Origin: a virus
Lineage: Duplodnaviria > Caudoviricetes
Virus record (IMG/VR): IMGVR_UViG_3300031867_000041
Span: 6,544-70,543 of that record
DNA: 64,000 bases
Direction: 5' to 3' (one strand)
In this document: piece after piece, positions 4,524 to 55,884 of the stretch
How the letters are laid out: each line of letters begins with the position of its first letter
Position numbering within the stretch: position 1 is the stretch's first letter
Notes under the pieces: generated by a model
Told to the model about the DNA's origin: nothing
Seen by the model: only the letters and a program-made list of their open reading frames with translations
Database searches by the model: none
Program-made: the position numbers and the translations under genes

Positions 4524-7500
4524 TTAAAACGAAGAAAACCGTCTGGCGGATCGTATTGTCAAACGGTTTACAAGATTATCATTATTTTGTTTCGGACGTT
4601 TAAGTTGGTCTTCACGCCTAGCCTACATTAAAGCGTAGCCAAGCATGCAGCAAACATAAGCACGGTCGTCATGCATTTTGTTCGCCTTTTCTGGGGTTAA
4701 TTCAAAAGAATCTTTGCCAGATTCTCTTTTTTTACGAATCATATTTACCAACTCTTCTTTGAGCGCATCTATATTAGCAAGCGCTATTTCGTCCCGCCAA
4801 TCTAATTTAATTGTTTTGGTTTTTACAGACTAAACCTTATTTAGTTCTTCTTTTAGTTTTTCTTCGAACTCCTTGCCAACAACTTTCTGTTTTTTTAATT
4901 TCTCTGTTATTTTATTTGTTTCTTCATCTAACAATTTCTAATCAATATCAAAAACAGTAAGATATCCTTTATGATCATAATTTGAAGTAAAACTAATTTT
5001 ATTCTAATTCATCATCTCAATCATTGCTTCATACATTATTGATTTAAACGCACTTGGGTTCATCATATGTAGTTTTCCTTGAATTGCATCTGGAAATCTC
5101 TTTACATATTCTTCTGAATAATCTTTATCAATAAGTCCTCTATGTTCTATTCCGGCTTTGTCAACCCAATTTTGCATAAGCATATCAGCAATTATTGGTC
5201 CACCTCCACCGGACCCAGCATCACAATAAATACCAAGTATATTATCATAATTATCAGTACCGCCATCATAGTCAAGAATCATTTGTCTTAGATATTCAAC
5301 CTAATCTGGGGTCTGCATTGGAGACTTTATCTTTTTGCCAACGTCAACAAGATTAACAAGATTTACTATACGCGCTTTCTTCTCGGTTTTTCCATCAGGA
5401 GTTGGAGAATCATAGCATTCACCAGCGAGAATGACCGAATTGTCGCGAAGTCTAGCCGGATCGTACAAAAGCCAAAATTTTTTATCACCAGTATCATTAC
5501 TATGAAGAGGTTTTCTTGTCTCCTCATTCCTTGTAATTACACCACGCTTAATAATAGCATCGGCGCCGGCTTCTGTTGTGAATTGACAATAATATTCACG
5601 CCTGGCTTTTTCTGGATTTGTCCTCATTTCAGACTCAACAGTTGAGCGAGAGAGAAGAGGTGTAATAACTTCTCCGTGAAGAGTTGGCTTAAATGCAAGT
5701 TCGCAATCAATATGAAGGACACAGTAATCTGGGTCTCCCATAATTTGACGCTTTGCGAAATCTCTATATAAAGCATAAAACTTTGTGTCTGTGCTAGAAG
5801 CAGAACTGATATAAAACTTTTGGTTTGGAATATTTGTAGCAAACGTTCTTTGACGTATTGGGTCAATCGACCTACCACTAGCATCCTTACCAGTCTTTAG
5901 GCTTTTGTTTACAATAGCAAAAGCAGAATAAACATTCATCATTTCTTCCGAAAGAAATCCAGATTCATCAAAAATAACGTTTCCTCTCATCAATCTGTTA
6001 TCTTAGAAGCTTTTTATCTTCTAATTCTTATGGTTATCCTTCCCATAAGTTCGGCATATCTTTTCACCTTCATCATTATATGGTCAGGTGGCGCTGACTC
6101 GTGGAGAGATTATATTCTATACAATAGTTTCACTCTCTATGCTCTGCCTGTGACTATGCTTTTAATCATAGCCTTCCAGTCGGGTTGGCATTCCAGCGTT
6201 CCCGTTTTCTTCAGCGCTTTAGTATTATAATCCACTTATTTCTAAGCGGCGAGGCGTTGAGGAATATATAAGTTTCACCTCTTTTTTTATCTATATTACT
6301 ATTCAGTGTCTACGTCATAGATCCATTATATACTTCGTAATTAAAGCCGTTTGACGAGTGGCTAAAGCCATCTCCGGCAGCATTCTTAATCTTTATCTCA
6401 TCTTTAAATATTTTTCCAGTAGAACCAGAAAATGTATCAATATTATCATTCGCGATCCGCTCCAGCGTTGTAAATGTCTATTCTGCCTGCGATCCAGAAC
6501 CAGATGCTATGTATGTCCAATAATTACAAAAACACATATCCTTCATCATAGTTTCCAAGTCAATGACCGTGCTATTATGTGTTACAGTATTTTTCTTCCC
6601 ACACAAAAACAGTTTTTCTTCACTATCTACTGAAATACATTTAGTTTTTACCGAATCAACTTTAACTATATTTACAATTTGCTTCCTTCGCTGTTTAGCG
6701 GGTAGATAATCTTTTAATCTATCAAGCTTTCTTGGTAACTTGAAACATGGCAGTTCTTTGCTAGGAGTAAATTTAAACCTATGCGCCTTAAATGTTTTGT
6801 CTCCACACTTTCGGTCGTATACTCCACATGTAAACTTAATCCCAAGGGATACCAATAACTTATAAAACCCATCACATATTTTTTCATGACAAACACTTTG
6901 AGTAAACTCTGCATATCCATCTTTAGAAATAGTACCATCTGTATCCATCAATCCACATAATAAATCTAATCTCTGTGACACGGAGCCATATAAGTACTCA
7001 TCTGGAATATGCTTATTCTCATATAAATTATTGGATTTTAACAACGTCACTAAGGGGATGTCATCATATCTATGTAATATTATTCGCTTATTATTCTTAG
7101 CATCATTAATAATTGATTTGATTTTATATCCGGTTTGTTCTATCGCTTTTATAATGTCATCCAAATCGGAATTGTGACATGTAATATAGCCCCCAGCAGA
7201 ACATCCATCTCCCAACCATAACCCTAATATATATGGATTTATATCATATTCTTTTTGAGGATGCATAAGTGGCAAACTCATTGGAACTGAATATCTAACA
7301 GCATGATAGTCTTTATCCCACTTATCACTGTAAGTTTTTCTATTTGGAATTAAATATGACGAAAATAACTCGCTTGTAGTTAACTCTTTTAATTCCTTCT
7401 TTTTTGAATAAACATCATAAACAGACCATATATGATCAGCATCGGCTATAATTTTCTCCTAATCAGAAAATGTAATCTCATAGCAATCATGATTAGTAAA

Positions 7501-48985: not shown

Positions 48986-49018
48986 AAAAATAAAAATAAA
49001 ATTTTACTCAAAAAGTTG

Positions 49019-49046
49019 TTGACATGAGCAAAAATTGGCGTATAAT
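49019..49046 (+). promoter_or_regulatory. Sigma-A promoter divergent from the repressor
   Basis: TTGACA-N16-TATAAT. Confidence 0.75.
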
Positions 49047-49157
49047 AAAATTTGGTAAGAGCAATATATAACTCACGAACTGAAACGGAAGCGTTAAAAA
49101 TAACTCACACAAAAAAGTATAATACAAGGATCACCAAAAGTCAAGGAGGGCTATTGT

Positions 49158-49415
49158 ATGTTTGACGATTTTATTAATGCTATCAATGAGGCAATTGAAA
49201 ACAACAGAACGATTTCTATGAGTATCAGTGTAAAAGATGGGAATTCATCTTACTGGGTAATTACACCAGAAGGAGTTGAGGTAGCAGAAAAAACCGTATA
49301 CATTTATCAAGGCGATTCTTATTATAATATAGAAGCAAAAGAAATTTCTTATGACGAAGCACTCGATCAGTATCTGCTCAAATCCGACTATTCTGTCGCA
49401 GCGTTTATTTTTTAA
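49158..49415 (+). CDS. Hypothetical protein (85 aa)
   Basis: AAGGAGG RBS; track ORF. Confidence 0.7.
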   Translation: MFDDFINAINEAIENNRTISMSISVKDGNSSYWVITPEGVEVAEKTVYIYQGDSYYNIEAKEISYDEALDQYLLKSDYSVAAFIF

Positions 49416-49456
49416 AAAACGCTGAAACAAAAATATATAAAATTAAATAATATGTG

Positions 49457-49485
49457 TTGACAAACGAAATTGTTTTTGATATAAT
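49457..49485 (+). promoter_or_regulatory. Consensus sigma-A promoter for the tRNA/ncRNA/CRISPR cluster
   Basis: TTGACA-N17-TATAAT. Confidence 0.85.
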
Positions 49486-49643
49486 CTTTTTAGGTTGAAA
49501 AACCGGATATCTACCGAGCAATGGGATCCGAACAATATACGAGATACCCGCCGCCGGAGATATATTTGAGAGATGGGTCGCACCCATCGGAGCCGAGGGA
49601 TACTGGTAACTCGGTAAGACGGTAAGCGGGTAGACCGTCACAA

Positions 49644-49719
49644 CCGCCATTAGCTCAGTTGGTTAGAGCGACGGCCTTATAAGCCGTGCCTGTCCTGGGT
49701 TCGAGTCCCAGATGGCGGA
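49644..49719 (+). tRNA. tRNA-Ile(UAU)
   Basis: CCGCCAT/ATGGCGG acceptor; ACGGC-CTTATAA-GCCGT anticodon arm. Confidence 0.9.
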
Positions 49720-49886
49720 TTATGCGTGGCATAATACGAGCGGTGGTTATTATGCGGATGAGTAACATGCACAGACTGGTTTGTTAATAAGCATTAAAGT
49801 GTGGTCGAAGGCCAAGACTGCCGCCAGTCGTTAATTGGAGTGCGAACTGTTCAGCCGTCGCTCCTAAAACATAACGGCAGAACTTT

Positions 49887-50007
49887 GGGAGTGTGAGCGC
49901 AGACAGCTGGTGTTAATAATTGTGTACGAAGTTATTAGCGAGTGTCGATGGCAACAGTCTGGTTACCCAGCAATCAGAAAACGAAGGTTCGAATCCTTCT
50001 GCTCCCG
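49887..50007 (+). ncRNA. tRNA-like RNA with ~50-nt structured expansion
   Basis: GGGAGTG/TGCTCCC acceptor and GAAGG-TTCGAAT-CCTTC T arm; 121 nt overall. Confidence 0.5.
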
Positions 50008-50010
50008 TTT

Positions 50011-50082
50011 CGGAACGTGGTTTAATTGGAAAAACGAGCCAGTGATGGTTATTTGATGCAGGTTCGAATCCTGTCGTTCCGA
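50011..50082 (+). ncRNA. tRNA-like RNA with 4-nt anticodon loop
   Basis: CGGAACG/CGTTCCG acceptor, GTTT/AAAC D stem, AGCCA-GTGA-TGGTT, canonical T arm. Confidence 0.6.
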
Positions 50083-50349
50083 CTATAGGTTGTTCAGGAG
50101 ACCTTCCTACGAGTGGTGGTCAGCCGTAGGTAAAAGCAAATCAAGAAAAGAAATCATTTTGACCACTGATTTCTGAGTACCGTGGCAGAAACATCGTATG
50201 AGATGGCTGCTAACAACTGATGGCATCTGGGAAAGACCGAAACGCGCGTTGCAACTCATTAATTGGTCTTACGTTTTAAGATCACGAATTTGTAATTCTA
50301 CTTGGAGAACAGAATTATTGTTACATTCTCATAAATAATTCACTCCAAA

Positions 50350-50463
50350 CGGAACATAGCTCAATTGGTAGAGCACTCATGACAAACTATTGTTAACAGT
50401 GTCTTTGTTAACAGATAACCAATAGTGAAATGGGAAATGCACGTTCGAGTCGTGCTGTTCCAT
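50350..50463 (+). ncRNA. tRNA-like RNA with a 49-nt structured anticodon loop
   Basis: GCTC-AATTGGTA-GAGC D arm; CTCAT/ATGGG stem enclosing nested hairpins; GCACG-TTCGAGT-CGTGC T arm. Confidence 0.65.
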
Positions 50464-50580
50464 TACCGAAGTATTCTAGATAAGCTTCGGAAAACACAAA
50501 GGTACTCTGAGACGGGTTATGAGCTTAAACGACCCCGGATGGTGCGCAAACAATACCATCAAACACGGCCTTTGTGGTAT

Positions 50581-50651
50581 AGGGCATTCGCCAAGCGGTA
50601 AGGCCCAGGAATTTGACTCCTGTATCATCCGTTCGAATCGGATATGCCCTG
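50581..50651 (+). tRNA. tRNA-Gln(UUG)
   Basis: GCCAAGCGGTAAGGC D arm; CAGGA-ATTTGAC-TCCTG; G73. Confidence 0.9.
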
Positions 50652-50778
50652 CTCGGATAAAAAGCGAATTTTATCCGAAACGTTAGTCACGTTAAAATAC
50701 TATCGCCGGTTTGGCAGTTCCGACAAAAACTGCCATTAAAAAGCAAGTAAACATTATAATATTAAAGGAGAACTGAAT

Positions 50779-51042
50779 ATGCAGAATGAACTTTATGTTG
50801 GCATGGTGTGCAAAGCAAAGTTTTCGGTAAGTCCAGACAGAACAATTTATAAGGATACGTGGTTACCAATACGCATCATTAAAGAGAATAAATATTGGTG
50901 GGACGCAGAAGTTCTGGAGCACGAAAGTCCGCATCCGCATTTTGGACCATCAAAGCCATATCAGATGTCCATAAACAAACATGCTCTTAAAGTTGGAGAG
51001 ATCCAGATTAAAGATATTCATACTAAAAAGAAATCTGCATAA
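50779..51042 (+). CDS. Hypothetical protein (87 aa) within the tRNA cluster
   Basis: AAAGGAG RBS; track ORF. Confidence 0.7.
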   Translation: MQNELYVGMVCKAKFSVSPDRTIYKDTWLPIRIIKENKYWWDAEVLEHESPHPHFGPSKPYQMSINKHALKVGEIQIKDIHTKKKSA

Positions 51043-51118
51043 TAAATTATCGACATGTTCTTTTTCTTTTGTTATAGACTCCTTTCTTAACGCTTGGCGG
51101 AGCGTAAAACCGCCATCT

Positions 51119-51205
51119 GCGGAGTTGGCAGAGTTTGGTTTAATGCACCGGCCTTGAAAACCGGAGATGGGAAACCATCCAGAGGTTCGAATCCTCTACT
51201 CCGCG
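51119..51205 (+). tRNA. tRNA-Ser(UGA)
   Basis: GCGGAGT/ACTCCGC acceptor, G73, loop CTTGAAA, variable arm GATGG-GAAA-CCATC. Confidence 0.9.
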
Positions 51206-51312
51206 CTAGGCATTAGTAATAATATTAATGCCGAACTCCTTTGCGCGTGGGCAAGAAATATGGTAGTTTTTCATGGACAACCGTTTGCCAGTATCGGATA
51301 AACTGGCATCGT

Positions 51313-51395
51313 GGGGCATTGGCGAAATAGGCAGACGCTTCGGACTTAAAATCCGATGACTTTTAGTCGTATGGGTTCAAATCCCATATGCCCTA
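51313..51395 (+). tRNA. tRNA-Leu(UAA)
   Basis: TCGGA-CTTAAAA-TCCGA, long variable arm, A73. Confidence 0.9.
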
Positions 51396-51404
51396 CTTCG
51401 AGGG

Positions 51405-51590
51405 AGGCTCATATCCTCTGTGCGAACATATAGTAACCATTAAAATCGCCGTAGGTTCGCACTGGTATTACCGATGGAAAGGCATTTGATTTTAGACAAA
51501 TCTCATTCCTATCGCCGTCGGAACTGTACATTGACACGTAATTGCATAACGGGAAGATGCAGATACATATTTGTTTTGTGCATATTTGCT
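51405..51590 (+). promoter_or_regulatory. Leader/tracr-like element A
   Basis: CTGTGCGAAC...GTTCGCACTGG inverted repeat; anti-repeat ATCTCATTCC at 51500-51509; ends TTTGCT at repeat 1. Confidence 0.7.
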
Positions 51591-51739
51591 GATGTAATTT
51601 GCGGATGTGTATAGAATGAGATGTAAACTAAAATCTGATGGACTGTTAACATACCCGATGTAATTCACGGATGTGTATGGAATGAGATTGGGGTAGCTAT
51701 CAGAGTATTCGTGAGGCTACAGATGTAATTCGCAGATGC
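51591..51739 (+). CRISPR. CRISPR mini-array A (2 full repeats plus 1 truncated, 2 spacers)
   Basis: 32-nt GATGTAATTYRCGGATGTGTATRGAATGAGAT at 51591 and 51657, partial at 51722; spacers 34 and 33 nt. Confidence 0.75.
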
Positions 51740-51761
51740 ACACAAAACAGAAAGGAATTAT

Positions 51762-53171
51762 ATGCAGTATACCAAAGTTACAAATTATTCATTAAAATGT
51801 AGGCTTTACCCGAATAAGACTCAGCAGAAAAAAATTGATGATATTCTATATGGATTAAGAGTTGCATATAATACGACAGCCTGGGAAATTGTCCACGGAA
51901 ATGAAAGTATTTGTGTGCCGGGTAAAAAAAATCAATCGGATTTCTATCCAGATTTTAATAAGATGTACAAAGCGGATTGGCTAGAACAATTAAGAAAGAC
52001 TCATGAGATTGTAAATGCTGTACCTCCAAACGCTCTTTCCGGTACAAACGGAATTATGTTAAACAACCTTAAAAAGTCATATGAGAATTTTCATCCAGAT
52101 ACGAATGTTCAAGCAAAAACAAGAACCGGCAAACTAAAATTTACAAAATCTGGCAAACCAGTAATGAAGAAAACCGATAAACCAGTAAAGGTTTCGTGTG
52201 ATAAATGGCAACCGACGTATTATTCAAATAAACACCCAAAGAGGTCTTTCTTTATACAGGTGGAAGCAAATCGGTTTAGTTTTCCAGAAAATTCGAAATC
52301 TGTTAAAGTTGATTTAACAAAAAATAAAGGAAATAGCTCAATGAAAGATTTTGGAGCTATGAAAATTCGTGGATGGAGATTTGATTTATTATATGGAGAT
52401 GATCAGAAATCAACATTTACAGACTGTTTTGATGATAGAAAATTAAGTGTATTTATTTCTAAAGATAATGTAGGTGATTATTATATTTCCGTGAGAATCC
52501 CGGAAGTTTGGATACCTGTAAAAGACACCAAAGAACAAAGGGAACTTGGTGTAGATGTTGGCGTTCATGATGTCGCCATAACTTCGGACGGAACTAAATA
52601 TGAGAATAAGAAATTTCTCGAAAAAGAAATTCAACATAAAAAAGCATTGAATAGACGTGTGAGCAGAAGACAAGGTTGGTCAAATATTAAATTTAGAGAA
52701 GCTCACAAAGAAAACAATGACTTGATGCCGTCGAAGAGATACGAGGAAACGAAATTAAAGTTGGCAAAACTTGATCGGAAAATTGCTAGGAGGCGAGATG
52801 ATTATAACCATTGTGTAACAAGAGATATTGTTAACAAAGCATCATTTATTGGAATTGAGTCTCTTGCTGTGAAAGATATGTTGCAAGATAAGTATATGGC
52901 CAGGGCGTTAAGTGATGCGGCTATGTACGATATATTATCAAAATTGAAATACAAAATGAATCGTAAGGGTGGGGAGATTGTTTCAATTGGCAAATGGGAG
53001 CCGTCCAGTCAGTTGTGTCATGTTTGCGGATATCAAAACAAACTAATTAAAGATACAAGAATAAGAGACTGGACATGTCCGAAATGTGGAACATATCATG
53101 ACAGAGATATAAACGCTGCCATTAATATATTAAATATGGCAAAAGCAAAACAAGAAGAAAAAACAATATAA
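51762..53171 (+). CDS. TnpB/Cas12f-like RNA-guided RuvC nuclease (469 aa), CRISPR-associated
   Basis: N-terminal LKCRLYPNKTQ; RuvC-I GVDVG, RuvC-II IGIESL, Zn finger CHVC/CPKC, RuvC-III HDRDINAA; no tnpA nearby; flanked by arrays. Confidence 0.9.
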   Translation: MQYTKVTNYSLKCRLYPNKTQQKKIDDILYGLRVAYNTTAWEIVHGNESICVPGKKNQSDFYPDFNKMYKADWLEQLRKTHEIVNAVPPNALSGTNGIMLNNLKKSYENFHPDTNVQAKTRTGKLKFTKSGKPVMKKTDKPVKVSCDKWQPTYYSNKHPKRSFFIQVEANRFSFPENSKSVKVDLTKNKGNSSMKDFGAMKIRGWRFDLLYGDDQKSTFTDCFDDRKLSVFISKDNVGDYYISVRIPEVWIPVKDTKEQRELGVDVGVHDVAITSDGTKYENKKFLEKEIQHKKALNRRVSRRQGWSNIKFREAHKENNDLMPSKRYEETKLKLAKLDRKIARRRDDYNHCVTRDIVNKASFIGIESLAVKDMLQDKYMARALSDAAMYDILSKLKYKMNRKGGEIVSIGKWEPSSQLCHVCGYQNKLIKDTRIRDWTCPKCGTYHDRDINAAINILNMAKAKQEEKTI

Positions 53172-53184
53172 TAAATTAAATCGT

Positions 53185-53373
53185 GTGAGGCTCAGATACA
53201 CTGTGCGAACTTGCAGTAATCATAAATTATCTGATAGGTTCGCACTGGCATTGGCCGTAATTAAAATGATTTTCATATCTTTAATGCAAATCATTATTGT
53301 TACGGATCACCATACGGGGTACATTTTGCTGATGTGGTAAGGAAATCTCAATCCATTTTTGTGTATTTTTGCT
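53185..53373 (+). promoter_or_regulatory. Leader/tracr-like element B
   Basis: Same inverted repeat (53201, 53238); anti-repeat TCTCAATCCAT at 53346-53356; ends TTTGCT. Confidence 0.7.
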
Positions 53374-53669
53374 GACGCAATACGTACGAGCGTATGGACT
53401 GAGAGATCCAGTAAAATCAAGGATTCCGAGATTTCGAGGACGTAATACGTACGAGCGTATGGACTGAGAGTGGTGTTGACCCTTGATATAACCGGTCCAT
53501 TATGACGTAATGCGTACGAGCGTATGGACTGAGAGGTTCGAGAAATTTCGAGGGTTTTCGAGGAGTGAAAGACGCAATACGTAAGAGCGTATGGACTGAG
53601 AGATATAGTGATATCCGTACAGTTACAAATGTCGCTTGACGCAATACGTACGAGCGTATGGACTGAGAG
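53374..53669 (+). CRISPR. CRISPR array B (5 repeats, 4 spacers)
   Basis: 32-nt GACGCAATACGTACGAGCGTATGGACTGAGAG at 53374, 53439, 53504, 53571, 53638; spacers 33, 33, 35, 35 nt. Confidence 0.95.
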
Positions 53670-53727
53670 GTATATGGTAGCAAAAGACGAGTTCTATAAG
53701 AATATATAATTAAACAAAATATGTTGG

Positions 53728-53917
53728 CGTGAGACTCAACCACGCTGTGCGAAGTATAAGCTAACACATATTTGCAAGTATGTTCGCACTGGCATTGACC
53801 GTAATTTAAATGGTTGCTGTATTTGACAATAACCATTATTGTTGCGGTAGTCATATATAATGTATGTATATTGCTCAATTCGCGGTTGAAATACGGAAAT
53901 ATTTATGTAGTTTTGCT
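53728..53917 (+). promoter_or_regulatory. Leader/tracr-like element C
   Basis: Same inverted repeat (53745, 53782), strongly similar to leader B; anti-repeat CTCAATTCGC at 53874-53883; ends TTTGCT. Confidence 0.7.
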
Positions 53918-54082
53918 GAATCGATATACACATGTATGTGAATTGAGATCCATATTCCGAGGTAGGAGAGTATGATACATCTACGAATCAATATACACAT
54001 GTATGTGAATTGAGATAATTCTATTCGCTTTCTTTTTCCCCCCGTAAGCCGAATCAATATACACACGTATGTGAATTGAAGT
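53918..54082 (+). CRISPR. CRISPR mini-array C (3 repeats, 2 spacers)
   Basis: 32-nt GAATCAATATACACATGTATGTGAATTGAGAT at 53918, 53985, 54051; spacers 35 and 34 nt. Confidence 0.9.
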
Positions 54083-54126
54083 AACTACAAATAATTGTAA
54101 TTCATCAGAAAGGAAGAAAAAACAGC

Positions 54127-55884
54127 ATGAACATCATATTAGGTTTTTTGTTTTTGCTACTTGCCATAACTGTACTAATCTATCTTATCTGTGCAGCTAG
54201 AGCAAGGGATCCGTCAGAAGATGACGAGCAGGCTGAATACCTTCGTGAATGGTATGAGAAACATAAAAAAGACATATAAAATTAAATAAGGAGTGCGCAT
54301 ATGACAACATTGATTCTTTTAGTCATCTGGATTCTGTTAGGATTGTCGTTGGTGTTTTTCGGAAGAGACCAGTATTATCTCTGGGTTGCCGAACAAAAAG
54401 AGGCAAACCGAAGACAAATGTCCGTGAACAATGTAGTTGGAGTTGATAAAAATGAAGTGTCCAATATGCGAAGCTGATATGGCTAGATGGATACAAAGTA
54501 CTCCATCTGGGCTTGTAATTAAAGACGAATGTAAATGTGGGTATTCCACTATATATTACGAAGGGATGGGCTATGGACGCAATAAGAATAATTGTATTAG
54601 TACTACTGGCAATAATCATACTCGGAGGAGTTCTGATATATAAATCGGACGATTCAGATTTTCGTTATGTTAGATGTGTAGACTGTGCAAACTGGGACGG
54701 CAAACAATGTGATCTAGATGAATCTTACTGCGGAACATTTTTCCCAGAAGATTATGAAAGCATTTTGAATATGCCGTTTTACAAAGACAAATCATGTAAC
54801 CAAAAGACCAAGACACAAATTAAAAAGGTGTTAAAAAACATCAACAAGAAAGAAAGTTGAGGTGAATATAAGTGAGACGACGAAAGAAACCCGGCAAGAG
54901 TACCGCCAAGCTAACAAAACGTGATGTGTTGTATAGGTATCTTCAGCCGGAAGATGGACTCCAAAAAATTTCTGAGTTAACGAAAGAGAATAATGGGATG
55001 TAGAAACTAAATGAGGTTTTGGATATTTGTTACGATGCAATAAAAAACTCTTTTGATTTAGACGAAGGTAATAAGTTTCGGATGTCAAAAGAAGAGGCAA
55101 TGTACTATTTGGAACCGCAGTATAGAATGATGAGAATGCTCCAGGTTTTTTCTGCTGGACGTATCTCATTGGCAGTAATTAATAACTTGATGAACACTGC
55201 AAGAGAAGCAATCGAAAAGGATATTGAACTTGAAAATATGATTCGCGACGATGTGCTTCAAGAAATTGCGGATAGTAAAGAGGAGAATGATAATGGCGAG
55301 ACCGGGTAATCAGAATAAAAAGAAAAGGTATGAAAAATATAAGAGTTCTGGTAGGAAGGAAGCGAACAAAGTGCTGAGACAGACCAAAGACGAAAAGCGT
55401 AAAGCGAGGTTTGCAAAGAAAAGAGAAGATGGTAAAGCTTATGAATATAAGCCTAATCCATACGAAAAAGGCAGTAGAGATTACAACATAGAAGCATTTA
55501 TTAGAGCAGAAAAGAATCAGAGTCATAAGACAGAGTACCAAACTGTCGTAAGTACTTTGCGGAAATTGCAAAACGATCTTGATCGAATTGCCAAAGAAGA
55601 AAAGGCAACTATGGACAAGACTAGCGGAAAGGGGAAGAGGCGCCAATCCTCTATAAATAATAACGACGCCCAGTATGAGGACATTGATATGTGAAAAATG
55701 TAATAGAGAAACTCATCGTCCATATATGTGGTGGGACGAAAGCGGATATGGATATTCCACAAAATTATGGAAATGTCGAATCTGCAATGGAATACAGATA
55801 GCGTATATAAAACAAGACAAAGGTTTAGATGTTAACGCTGACGAAAGATTTTATGAATACAATAAGTTTTATGGAGAACAATGA
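54127..55884 (+). other. Cluster of short hypothetical ORFs (membrane peptides, CxxC proteins, basic 140-aa protein)
   Basis: Track ORFs 54437..54643, 54537..54860, 55019..55309, 55251..55694, 55675..55884. Confidence 0.6.

Follow-up and report, generated by a model that had tools for sequence, protein, structure and literature searches.

How one compact nuclease is matched to three short CRISPR arrays, and through which bases each guide-RNA scaffold recognizes its own repeat, is the question raised by this locus of a tailed phage (Duplodnaviria; Caudoviricetes). The window analysed here is a stretch of 64,000 nt from IMG/VR record IMGVR_UViG_3300031867_000041, and all coordinates refer to it. 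TranC nucleases represent the stage at which the single guide RNA of a transposon became a tracrRNA and a crRNA; they can be guided by a CRISPR RNA or by a single right-end RNA and carry out RNA-guided DNA cleavage. Our findings indicate that the locus is probably a phage-borne system of the TranC type, in which a nuclease recently derived from TnpB is accompanied by three paralogous guide-RNA cassettes with both scaffold-repeat contacts conserved. The initial annotation of the locus had assigned the anti-repeat function to a 10-11-nt element in each leader; our analysis corrects this assignment in favor of a loop pentamer and a long anti-repeat.

Results

Organization of the locus and its relatives

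The predicted TranC-type (TnpB-derived) RNA-guided nuclease is encoded at 51762-53171 (469 aa), with cassette A upstream of the gene, cassettes B and C downstream, and all features on the same (+) strand. The leader is 189 nt long in each cassette, and arrays A, B and C contain three, five and three repeats of 32 nt with spacers of 33-35 nt. Cassette A opens 3 nt after the end of tRNA-Leu(UAA) (51313-51396; ARAGORN, Rfam tRNA match), the last of a cluster of five tRNAs. Its first hairpin (P0, 51400-51418) is followed by a conserved stem-loop, GTGCGAAC ... GTTCGCAC (51420-51462), that is 97% paired and nearly invariant across the family, by a long variable hairpin in the minimum free energy (MFE) fold, CCGATGG ... 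CCGTCGG (51471-51521), in which 7/7 stem-base pairs covary, and by the long anti-repeat that we term canonical (51523-51548). Array A (51591-51753) consists of repeats at 51591 and 51657, spacers of 34 and 33 nt, and, at 51722, a degenerate repeat that reaches into the nuclease gene's ribosome-binding site. As the initial annotation had noted, cassette B comes directly after the nuclease stop codon (53169-53171): its first hairpin spans 53183-53201, its canonical anti-repeat 53309-53330, and array B (53374-53669) holds five repeats (53374, 53439, 53504, 53571 and 53638) separated by spacers of 33-35 nt. In cassette C the first hairpin lies at 53727-53745 and the canonical anti-repeat at 53850-53882 (core 53850-53877), and array C (53918-54082) has repeats at 53918 and 53985, a degenerate repeat at 54051, and spacers of 35 and 34 nt.

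More than 1,500 homologous loci were found, and close relatives were drawn from the protein database and from contig look-ups; a single-protein scan of IMG/VR returned no close relative, and a metagenome scan returned distant TnpBs only. The same three cassettes are present in L002, whose protein is 77% identical, while L004, L017 and L167 have two each, and a single cassette, located downstream of the gene, is present in L006, L012-14, L087, L168, L169, L171 and L172. In L007, L010 and L011 the first unit is closed and omega-like and is followed by an array. Cis units exist in more distant relatives, where a short loop joins the anti-repeat to a half repeat.

The nuclease

The protein matches the Pfam families Cas12f1-like_TNB (1e-19) and OrfB_IS605 (1e-14), and among NCBIfam models it scores above the cut-off for guided_TnpB and below it for IS200/IS605 TnpB. 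Its best solved relative is LaTranC (9jfo; profile E 6.5e-122, single sequence 7e-77), with ISDra2 TnpB next (1e-56). The RuvC acidic residues D265, E366 and D449 and the zinc-finger cysteines C419/C422/C439/C442 are invariant in 32 relatives and align to the LaTranC motifs. Since the HMMER alignment to LaTranC breaks into three separate stretches, the strongest being the C-terminal 150 residues, the nuclease forms a branch distinct from LaTranC. Across the 70.5-kb record, which is about 41% complete, the nuclease gene is single-copy and no match was found to Cas1 or to a Y1 transposase (Y1_Tnp).

Covariation of scaffold and repeat

The initial annotation had proposed covariation across homologous loci as the check on its pairing, and we carried this out on an alignment (A3) of 23 homologous cassettes from 15 loci, in which three rows are out of register at the 5' end, with the sole effect of lowering the counts. 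Sliding the partners by 1-3 columns and 500 shuffles served as controls. The whole structure is 91% paired, against 33-45% with slid partners, and 0/500 shuffles matched any of the five covariation measures. The first hairpin (helix 1) is 86% paired over the 23 cassettes. The pseudoknot helix, formed between the loop of this hairpin and repeat positions 26-30, is 93% paired, with changes on both sides in 5/5 pairs. In the window the loop pentamers are CTCAT (51408-51412) in cassette A, CTCAG (53191-53195) in B and CTCAA (53735-53739) in C, facing ATGAG, CTGAG and TTGAG of the respective repeats; together with CTCAC/GTGAG, TTCAA/TTGAA, TTCAC/GTGAA, TACTC/GAGTA, TTAGC/GCTAA, TCTAT/ATAGA, TCCAT/ATGGA, CTCGC/GCGAG and CCCAA/TTGGG, twelve pentamer/repeat combinations occur, and the pseudoknot strand thus tolerates at least a dozen sequences.

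A second contact is made by the long anti-repeat, at leader offsets of about 122-150, which by covariation pairs with repeat positions 2-24. Its core is 87% paired over the same cassettes, with double changes in 9/10 pairs, and covariation is likewise seen where it extends to repeat positions 21-24 (one pair, for instance, has CG:10 and UA:10); repeat position 25 is never paired in this analysis. The middle of the helix is only 68% paired and may be left unpaired in the mature complex, since the repeats within the array of L006 vary at these positions. Duplex folds of the canonical anti-repeats in the window give -17 to -20 kcal/mol: -17 to -18 for A and for C, each with repeat positions 1-25, and -19.6 for B with positions 3-25. 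Both the loop pentamer and the canonical anti-repeat match their own repeat best in 3/3 cassettes. In A, B and C alike, divergence of the repeat has been accompanied by divergence of both contacts, and each scaffold therefore fits its own array best. This bears out the broader view of the initial annotation that the leaders are tracrRNA-like scaffolds with an anti-repeat matched to their own array, that the matching covaries across homologous loci, and that one nuclease is supplied with three variants of scaffold and repeat.

In its sequence anatomy, the predicted scaffold of each cassette is about 150 nt long and comprises the first hairpin with its 5-nt pseudoknot strand, the GTGCGAA/TTCGCAC stem-loop, the long variable hairpin and an anti-repeat of 22-30 nt. 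A T-rich leader stretch of about 40 nt, which includes a conserved junction motif, separates it from the mini-array. The repeat would be recognized in two parts, positions 2-24 by the long anti-repeat and 26-30 by the loop pentamer. The latter pairing, located just 5' of the guide, would give rise to the guide-pseudoknot-stem core common to TnpB and Cas12 guides. A hairpin internal to the middle of the repeat was considered and rejected, as its registers differ among cassettes and covariation favors the extended anti-repeat pairing. MFE folds differ among cassettes A, B and C, and the pseudoknot is beyond what such a fold can represent. An Rfam search of positions 49000-55000 (E<=1) returned tRNAs only, with no omega-RNA, tracrRNA or CRISPR-DR family, and a scan for promoters and terminators performed no better than on shuffles.

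The 10-11-nt elements

The coordinates and sequences given for these elements in the initial annotation are exact, as is their complementarity, which is perfect for A, has one mismatch for B and one G-U pair for C. Element A, ATCTCATTCC (51500-51509), sits in the 3' arm of the long variable hairpin, complements repeat positions 23-32, and is the exact reverse complement of GGAATGAGAT at the end of repeat A2 (51679-51688), matching repeat A1 at 9/10 positions. Element B, TCTCAATCCAT (53346-53356), is located downstream of the canonical anti-repeat and upstream of the first repeat and pairs at 10/11 positions with ATGGACTGAGA, which is present in 5/5 B repeats. Element C, CTCAATTCGC (53874-53883), pairs with GTGAATTGAG of two C repeats and overlaps the 3' end of the canonical anti-repeat, where its AUUC (leader offsets 150-153) doubles as the canonical partner of the GAAU that opens repeat C.

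Chance expectation was estimated from 500 dinucleotide-preserving shuffles per leader, scored by the energy of the duplex formed with the final 12 nt of the repeat; counting of G-U-permissive runs was dropped as too noisy in T-rich leaders, and Watson-Crick runs and duplex energies were used instead. The score was reached by 0/500 shuffles for A and for C, with p=0.02 for B, whose longest perfect Watson-Crick run is 5 nt (p=0.5 on the run measure). These results place the complementarity above chance for A and C and make it marginal for B. The extra complementarities to repeat positions 21-32 are real, and they are specific to the phage studied: in 20 cassettes of relatives no element exceeds chance, the lowest p values (0.022 and 0.026) being about those expected from 20 tests, and none does in L002 with its three cassettes. 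Because the elements lie at offsets 99 (A), 162 (B) and 146 (C) in leaders of equal length, their positions are not homologous. Elements A and C pair best with their own repeat. The view of the initial annotation that changes in the repeats are followed by the anti-repeats fails for B, which binds repeat A no less strongly than its own (-12.8 versus -12.2 kcal/mol) and whose mismatch falls on exactly the base that distinguishes repeat B; it is the loop pentamer CTCAG, not the element, that compensates this base.

Because their target bases overlap those of both conserved contacts, the elements would compete with these contacts. They are most likely not required for guide function, and may be by-products confined to this lineage or, at the very most, an alternative pairing with a modulating role. 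A function is still conceivable, given that significance in 3/3 cassettes is not easily explained by accident. One such function would be a lineage-specific regulatory layer, in which the alternative pairing ties up the pseudoknot strand together with the last anti-repeat pairs of a repeat and could delay or tune guide assembly, bias cassette use or aid processing of the precursor. Each element does span the junction of the two contacts (repeat positions 21-31), its duplex (-11 to -15 kcal/mol) exceeds the 5-bp pseudoknot alone (-5 to -7 kcal/mol), and all three cassettes of this phage have one at a significance not seen in relatives. However, neither the position nor the presence of the elements is conserved, element B shows no specificity for the repeat of its own cassette, and element A is already buried in a hairpin that is stable in the MFE fold. 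We regard this reading as unlikely. We hold the same reserve toward an 'anti-pseudoknot' switch, in which a second, longer complement in each scaffold controls when, and from which cassette, guides load onto the TranC nuclease; were this improbable proposal true, it would represent cis-encoded control over the loading of a single nuclease from three mutually best-matched cassettes.

The initial annotation went further, treating the elements as the functional anti-repeats, which pair in cis with the first repeat to give a natural single-guide RNA. The complementarity that beats shuffles in the window, the preference of elements A and C for their own repeat, and the adjacency of scaffold and array on the same strand, uninterrupted by any terminator-like site, are all consistent with this model. 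Yet strong covariation gives repeat positions 26-30 to the loop pentamer and 21-24 to the end of the long anti-repeat, the elements occupy non-homologous columns (with A inside a hairpin arm), and B and C are placed on the 3' side of the canonical anti-repeat, which is not the order that a continuous duplex would need. Coupled with the uncompensated mismatch of element B and the relatives' cassettes, L002 included, in which no element stands out from chance, this makes the model very unlikely and leaves a cis single guide that depends on the elements unsupported. The elements fail the covariation comparison that the loop pentamer and the long anti-repeat pass.

Discussion

Our findings favor a phage-borne TranC-type system that recognizes its repeats through the pentamer and the long anti-repeat. 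That the cassettes are instead ordinary IS200/IS605 TnpB transposon ends, with omega-RNA copies and 'arrays' that are chance or decayed duplications, is barely credible: the NCBIfam scores do favor guided_TnpB, with the IS200/IS605 TnpB model below cut-off, a scaffold does follow the stop codon as an omega-RNA would, and L007, L010 and L011 do open with a closed omega-like unit, but 15 loci have regular 32-nt repeats in up to 13 copies, with a period of 64-70 nt (mostly 67-68) and unique spacers, the single-copy gene has no Y1 transposase beside it in the record, and the nearest solved relative is a CRISPR-associated TranC. The TranC features found here are protein similarity, the RuvC motifs and zinc finger, an array, an anti-repeat scaffold and a guide-proximal pseudoknot.

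Searches for spacer targets gave no match within the window or among 50,697 phage records (E<=1) and, for three spacers, no exact 23-mers in IMG/VR. Because no target was found, we infer activity and biological role: by analogy with LaTranC, the nuclease would cut DNA, and its RNAs would be made, processed and loaded in the same way. LaTranC is described as a TranC (transposon-CRISPR intermediate; PDB 9jfo/9jfp/9jfq; Jin et al. 2025, Cell 188:6283), and its guide is compared here at the level of secondary descriptions, as is the likeness of the helices. By those descriptions both systems have a compact TnpB-like nuclease adjoining a short CRISPR array of 32-36-nt repeats without adaptation genes, a tracrRNA between gene and array, and a guide from a split right-end (omega) RNA with stems, a pseudoknot/triplex region and a scaffold of about 157 nt. 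Unlike LaTranC, the system reported here is phage-encoded and surrounds one gene with three cassettes, each made of a scaffold and an array; the repeats, pentamers and anti-repeats of these cassettes have diverged in concert. The closed unit followed by an array in L007, L010 and L011 may be a hint, at the level of sequence, of dual guiding by a CRISPR RNA and a single right-end RNA.

The guide-pseudoknot-stem core and a scaffold that begins at the 3' end of the gene are shared with the omega-RNA of ISDra2 TnpB (PDB 8h1j, 8exa), in which the loop of stem 1 base-pairs with nucleotides -6 to -2 and stem 4 is the counterpart of the repeat:anti-repeat stem of Cas12f (PMC10097598). The position of the scaffold downstream of the gene is the usual one for a TnpB omega-RNA, and omega-RNA ancestry, as initially proposed, is upheld by our analysis. 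In the TnpB omega-RNA the equivalent of the long anti-repeat duplex is stem 4, and in the Cas12f guide it is the repeat:anti-repeat stem 5. In contrast to ISDra2, the last stem is here split into an anti-repeat and a repeat about 40 nt apart, and an array comes next; transposase and transposon ends are both absent, and the protein can be aligned to TnpB only in its C-terminal half. As in Cas12f (type V-F), e.g., Un1Cas12f1 (PDB 7c7l), the tracrRNA is encoded between gene and array and a spacer-proximal pseudoknot (repeat:anti-repeat 1) is combined with a distal duplex (repeat:anti-repeat 2, stem 5), though protein similarity to Cas12f is weak and confined to the RuvC/zinc-finger C-terminus (E about 1e-9).

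The step by which a transposon guide was split is visible here in natural variation, from a closed omega-like unit with an array to, in closer relatives, a stem opened into anti-repeat and repeat, and some loci provide two or three diverged cassettes for one nuclease. Covariation yields a base-by-base map of the repeat positions that the scaffold must match, 2-24 and 26-30, which is of direct use in the design of compact guides, or of mutually selective guide sets, for small editors.

The repeats of L007-L017 also resemble those of type I-C systems, being 32 nt long with spacers of 33-35 nt and ending in GGATTGAAAT, as do the type I-C repeats of Bifidobacterium at their 3' end (PMC4521832 Table 1). 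In contrast to type I-C, the locus has no type I genes, and the repeats in the window have drifted from GGATTGAAAT to GGAATGAGAT, GGACTGAGAG and GAATTGAGAT. The ending shared with type I-C repeats is, in this family, the pseudoknot strand.

Results

Downstream of a cluster of five tRNA genes (3' end at 51396), three paralogous cassettes on the + strand surround a nuclease ORF encoding 469 aa (51762-53171, +), which bears out the initial annotation's proposal of three scaffold variants for one nuclease. Each cassette opens with a conserved 5' module of ~87 nt, continues through a stretch that varies more, and ends in a conserved T-rich junction motif with its array. A profile search with the 5' module recovers exactly three copies within the window, and in cassettes A, B and C alike the first repeat begins 189 nt from the start of the module. 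The arrays contain 3, 5 and 3 copies, respectively, of 32-nt repeats with spacers of 33-35 nt, and arrays A and C have a degenerate terminal repeat.

The nuclease carries Cas12f1-like TNB and OrfB_IS605 Pfam domains and is assigned by NCBIfam to the guided TnpB family proteins. LaTranC (9jfo; profile E 6.5e-122, single sequence 7e-77) is much its closest match among solved structures, followed by ISDra2 TnpB (E about 1e-56); Cas12f matches at the C-terminus only (E about 1e-9). The RuvC acidic residues and four zinc-finger cysteines are unchanged in 32 relatives. Neither Cas1 nor a Y1 transposase was found in the parent 70.5-kb IMG/VR virus record, which has an estimated completeness of 41%. 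The system is a phage-borne, multi-cassette TranC, a new example of an already published kind.

Pairing between scaffold and repeat was counted helix by helix over 23 homologous cassettes (alignment A3), and two contacts stand out. The first is a pseudoknot: the scaffold begins with a hairpin of 5 bp and a 9-nt loop, and a pentamer in that loop pairs with repeat positions 26-30, ending 2 nt short of the spacer. Even with three rows of the alignment out of register, the pseudoknot helix is 93% paired with changes on both sides in 5/5 pairs. The pentamer/repeat pairs are CTCAT/ATGAG (A), CTCAG/CTGAG (B) and CTCAA/TTGAG (C) in the window, and further pairs are CTCAC/GTGAG, TTCAA/TTGAA, TTCAC/GTGAA, TACTC/GAGTA, TTAGC/GCTAA, TCTAT/ATAGA, TCCAT/ATGGA, CTCGC/GCGAG and CCCAA/TTGGG. 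The second contact is a long anti-repeat, immediately 3' of a long variable hairpin, whose partner is repeat positions 2-24. In its core (repeat positions 2-11) pairing reaches 87% and 9/10 pairs show double changes, its middle is looser (68% paired), and repeat positions 21-24 covary clearly with it; repeat position 25 is paired in no cassette. For the whole structure 91% of cells are paired, versus 33-45% when partners are shifted by 1-3 columns, and 0/500 shuffles matched any covariation measure.

In the window these canonical anti-repeats lie at 51523-51548 (A), 53309-53330 (B) and 53850-53877, extending to 53882 (C), and form duplexes of -17 to -20 kcal/mol. For anti-repeat and pentamer alike the best match is the cassette's own repeat in all three cases, so that the leaders are indeed fitted to their own arrays. 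In the ISDra2 omega-RNA, the loop of stem 1 pairs with nucleotides -6 to -2, and stem 4 is the counterpart of the Cas12f repeat:anti-repeat duplex (PMC10097598). The guide-pseudoknot-stem core is the same in the window cassettes, in agreement with the omega-RNA-like ancestry proposed initially.

The initial annotation had placed this fit in three shorter leader elements, whose positions, sequences and complementarity are exactly as it described. Element A, ATCTCATTCC (51500-51509), matches the final 10 nt of repeat A2 as an exact reverse complement and repeat A1 at 9/10 positions; element B, TCTCAATCCAT (53346-53356), pairs at 10/11 positions with ATGGACTGAGA, found in 5/5 B repeats; element C, CTCAATTCGC (53874-53883), can form a duplex with GTGAATTGAG of the C repeats that includes one G-U. 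Against 500 dinucleotide-preserving leader shuffles, scored by the energy of the duplex with the 3'-terminal 12 nt of the repeat, none was as strong as observed for A or for C, whereas element B reached p=0.02 with a longest uninterrupted Watson-Crick run of 5 nt. The complementarity is therefore real, but weaker for B than had been implied.

These elements occupy non-homologous alignment columns (leader offsets 99, 162 and 146), and their partner, repeat positions 21-32, is shared with the anti-repeat end and the pseudoknot. The long variable hairpin contains element A in its 3' arm; B and C are located 3' of the canonical anti-repeat and 5' of the first repeat, an order that does not fit one continuous duplex with the same repeat. 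Element C overlaps the 3' end of its canonical anti-repeat, and the AUUC within it has a second partner in the GAAU opening repeat C. No second complement of this kind was found in 20 cassettes from other loci, including all three of L002, the 77%-identical relative; the lowest p values there (0.022 and 0.026) are at the level expected from 20 tests.

The annotation had also held that the elements change along with the repeats, which fails for B. Element B is fully complementary to GGATTGAGA, with which repeats of the relative L006 end; the B repeat carries C in place of a T of that ending, a change compensated by the loop pentamer (CTCAG) but not by element B, which pairs at least as well with repeat A (-12.8 kcal/mol) as with its own (-12.2 kcal/mol). 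Leader B also holds, at 53325-53342, TTTTGCTGATGTGG, similar to the junction motif plus the beginning of an A-type repeat and possibly a relic of an internal duplication between canonical anti-repeat and first repeat.

The nuclease has >1,500 homologues in the protein database, of which the contigs of the closest were examined together with IMG/VR relatives. The module-plus-array layout recurs in these loci: three cassettes in L002, as in the window; two apiece in L004, L017 and L167; one downstream of the gene in L006, L012-L014, L087, L168, L169, L171 and L172; and one upstream in L170. The 13 repeats of the L006 array (L006:4621-5404) keep their first 9 and last 12 nt constant and vary in the middle 10-14 nt, which suggests that the scaffold constrains the repeat ends only. 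In a 50%-identical relative, a full scaffold and one repeat-like unit are followed by a single guide (L005:4399-4625), and no array was detected in that locus. This unit is flanked on both sides by tRNA-like sequences, each preceded by a similar 22-nt motif (L005:2884-2905, 4629-4650).

Discussion

Our findings assign the match between leader and array to the canonical contacts. Covariation across homologous loci supports the cassettes but not the 10-11-nt elements, because the canonical contacts covary while the elements are non-homologous, absent in relatives and, for B, non-specific; as the matching bases, they would moreover compete with the conserved contacts. Elements are nonetheless carried by 3/3 cassettes of this phage, and they are more likely lineage-specific by-products than a modulating alternative pairing, which we consider improbable.

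At the 3' end of the scaffold in L007, L010 and L011 (33-43% identity) is a short closed hairpin; a 3' half-repeat and a spacer come next, and then an array of full repeats. Judged from its sequence, this first unit is a complete omega-like single guide. In the branch of the window the stem is opened, with a gap of ~40 nt from anti-repeat to first repeat. The two could still fold together in cis around a large loop, as MFE folding predicts for A and C, though not for B. Spacers beyond the first would require the scaffold in trans.

A promoter/terminator scan gave no signal above background. Only 3 nt separate the 3' end of tRNA-Leu from the first hairpin of cassette A (51313-51418), and the degenerate last repeat of array A extends into the nuclease gene's ribosome-binding site. 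A single transcription unit may thus comprise the tRNA cluster, the nuclease and all three cassettes. The 5' end of scaffold A may be set by tRNA processing.

Because no spacer matched the window or the phage collection, and no exact 23-mer of three spacers occurred in IMG/VR, we can only infer the biological role; the likely candidates are competition among phages and competition against other mobile elements. The repeats of the distant relatives L007-L017 (e.g., L017:4105-4136) are 32 nt long with 33-35-nt spacers and end in GGATTGAAAT, an ending shared with Bifidobacterium type I-C repeats (PMC4521832 Table 1). For a phage record without Cas1, spacers could conceivably be taken up by the type I-C adaptation module of a host, and in that event the conserved junction motif TTTGTGNATTTTTGC, just 5' of the first repeat, could serve as the leader site for integration. 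Repeated TTCGAG/TTTCGAG motifs occur in both spacer B1 (53406-53438) and spacer B3 (53536-53570), hinting at a repetitive target as their source.
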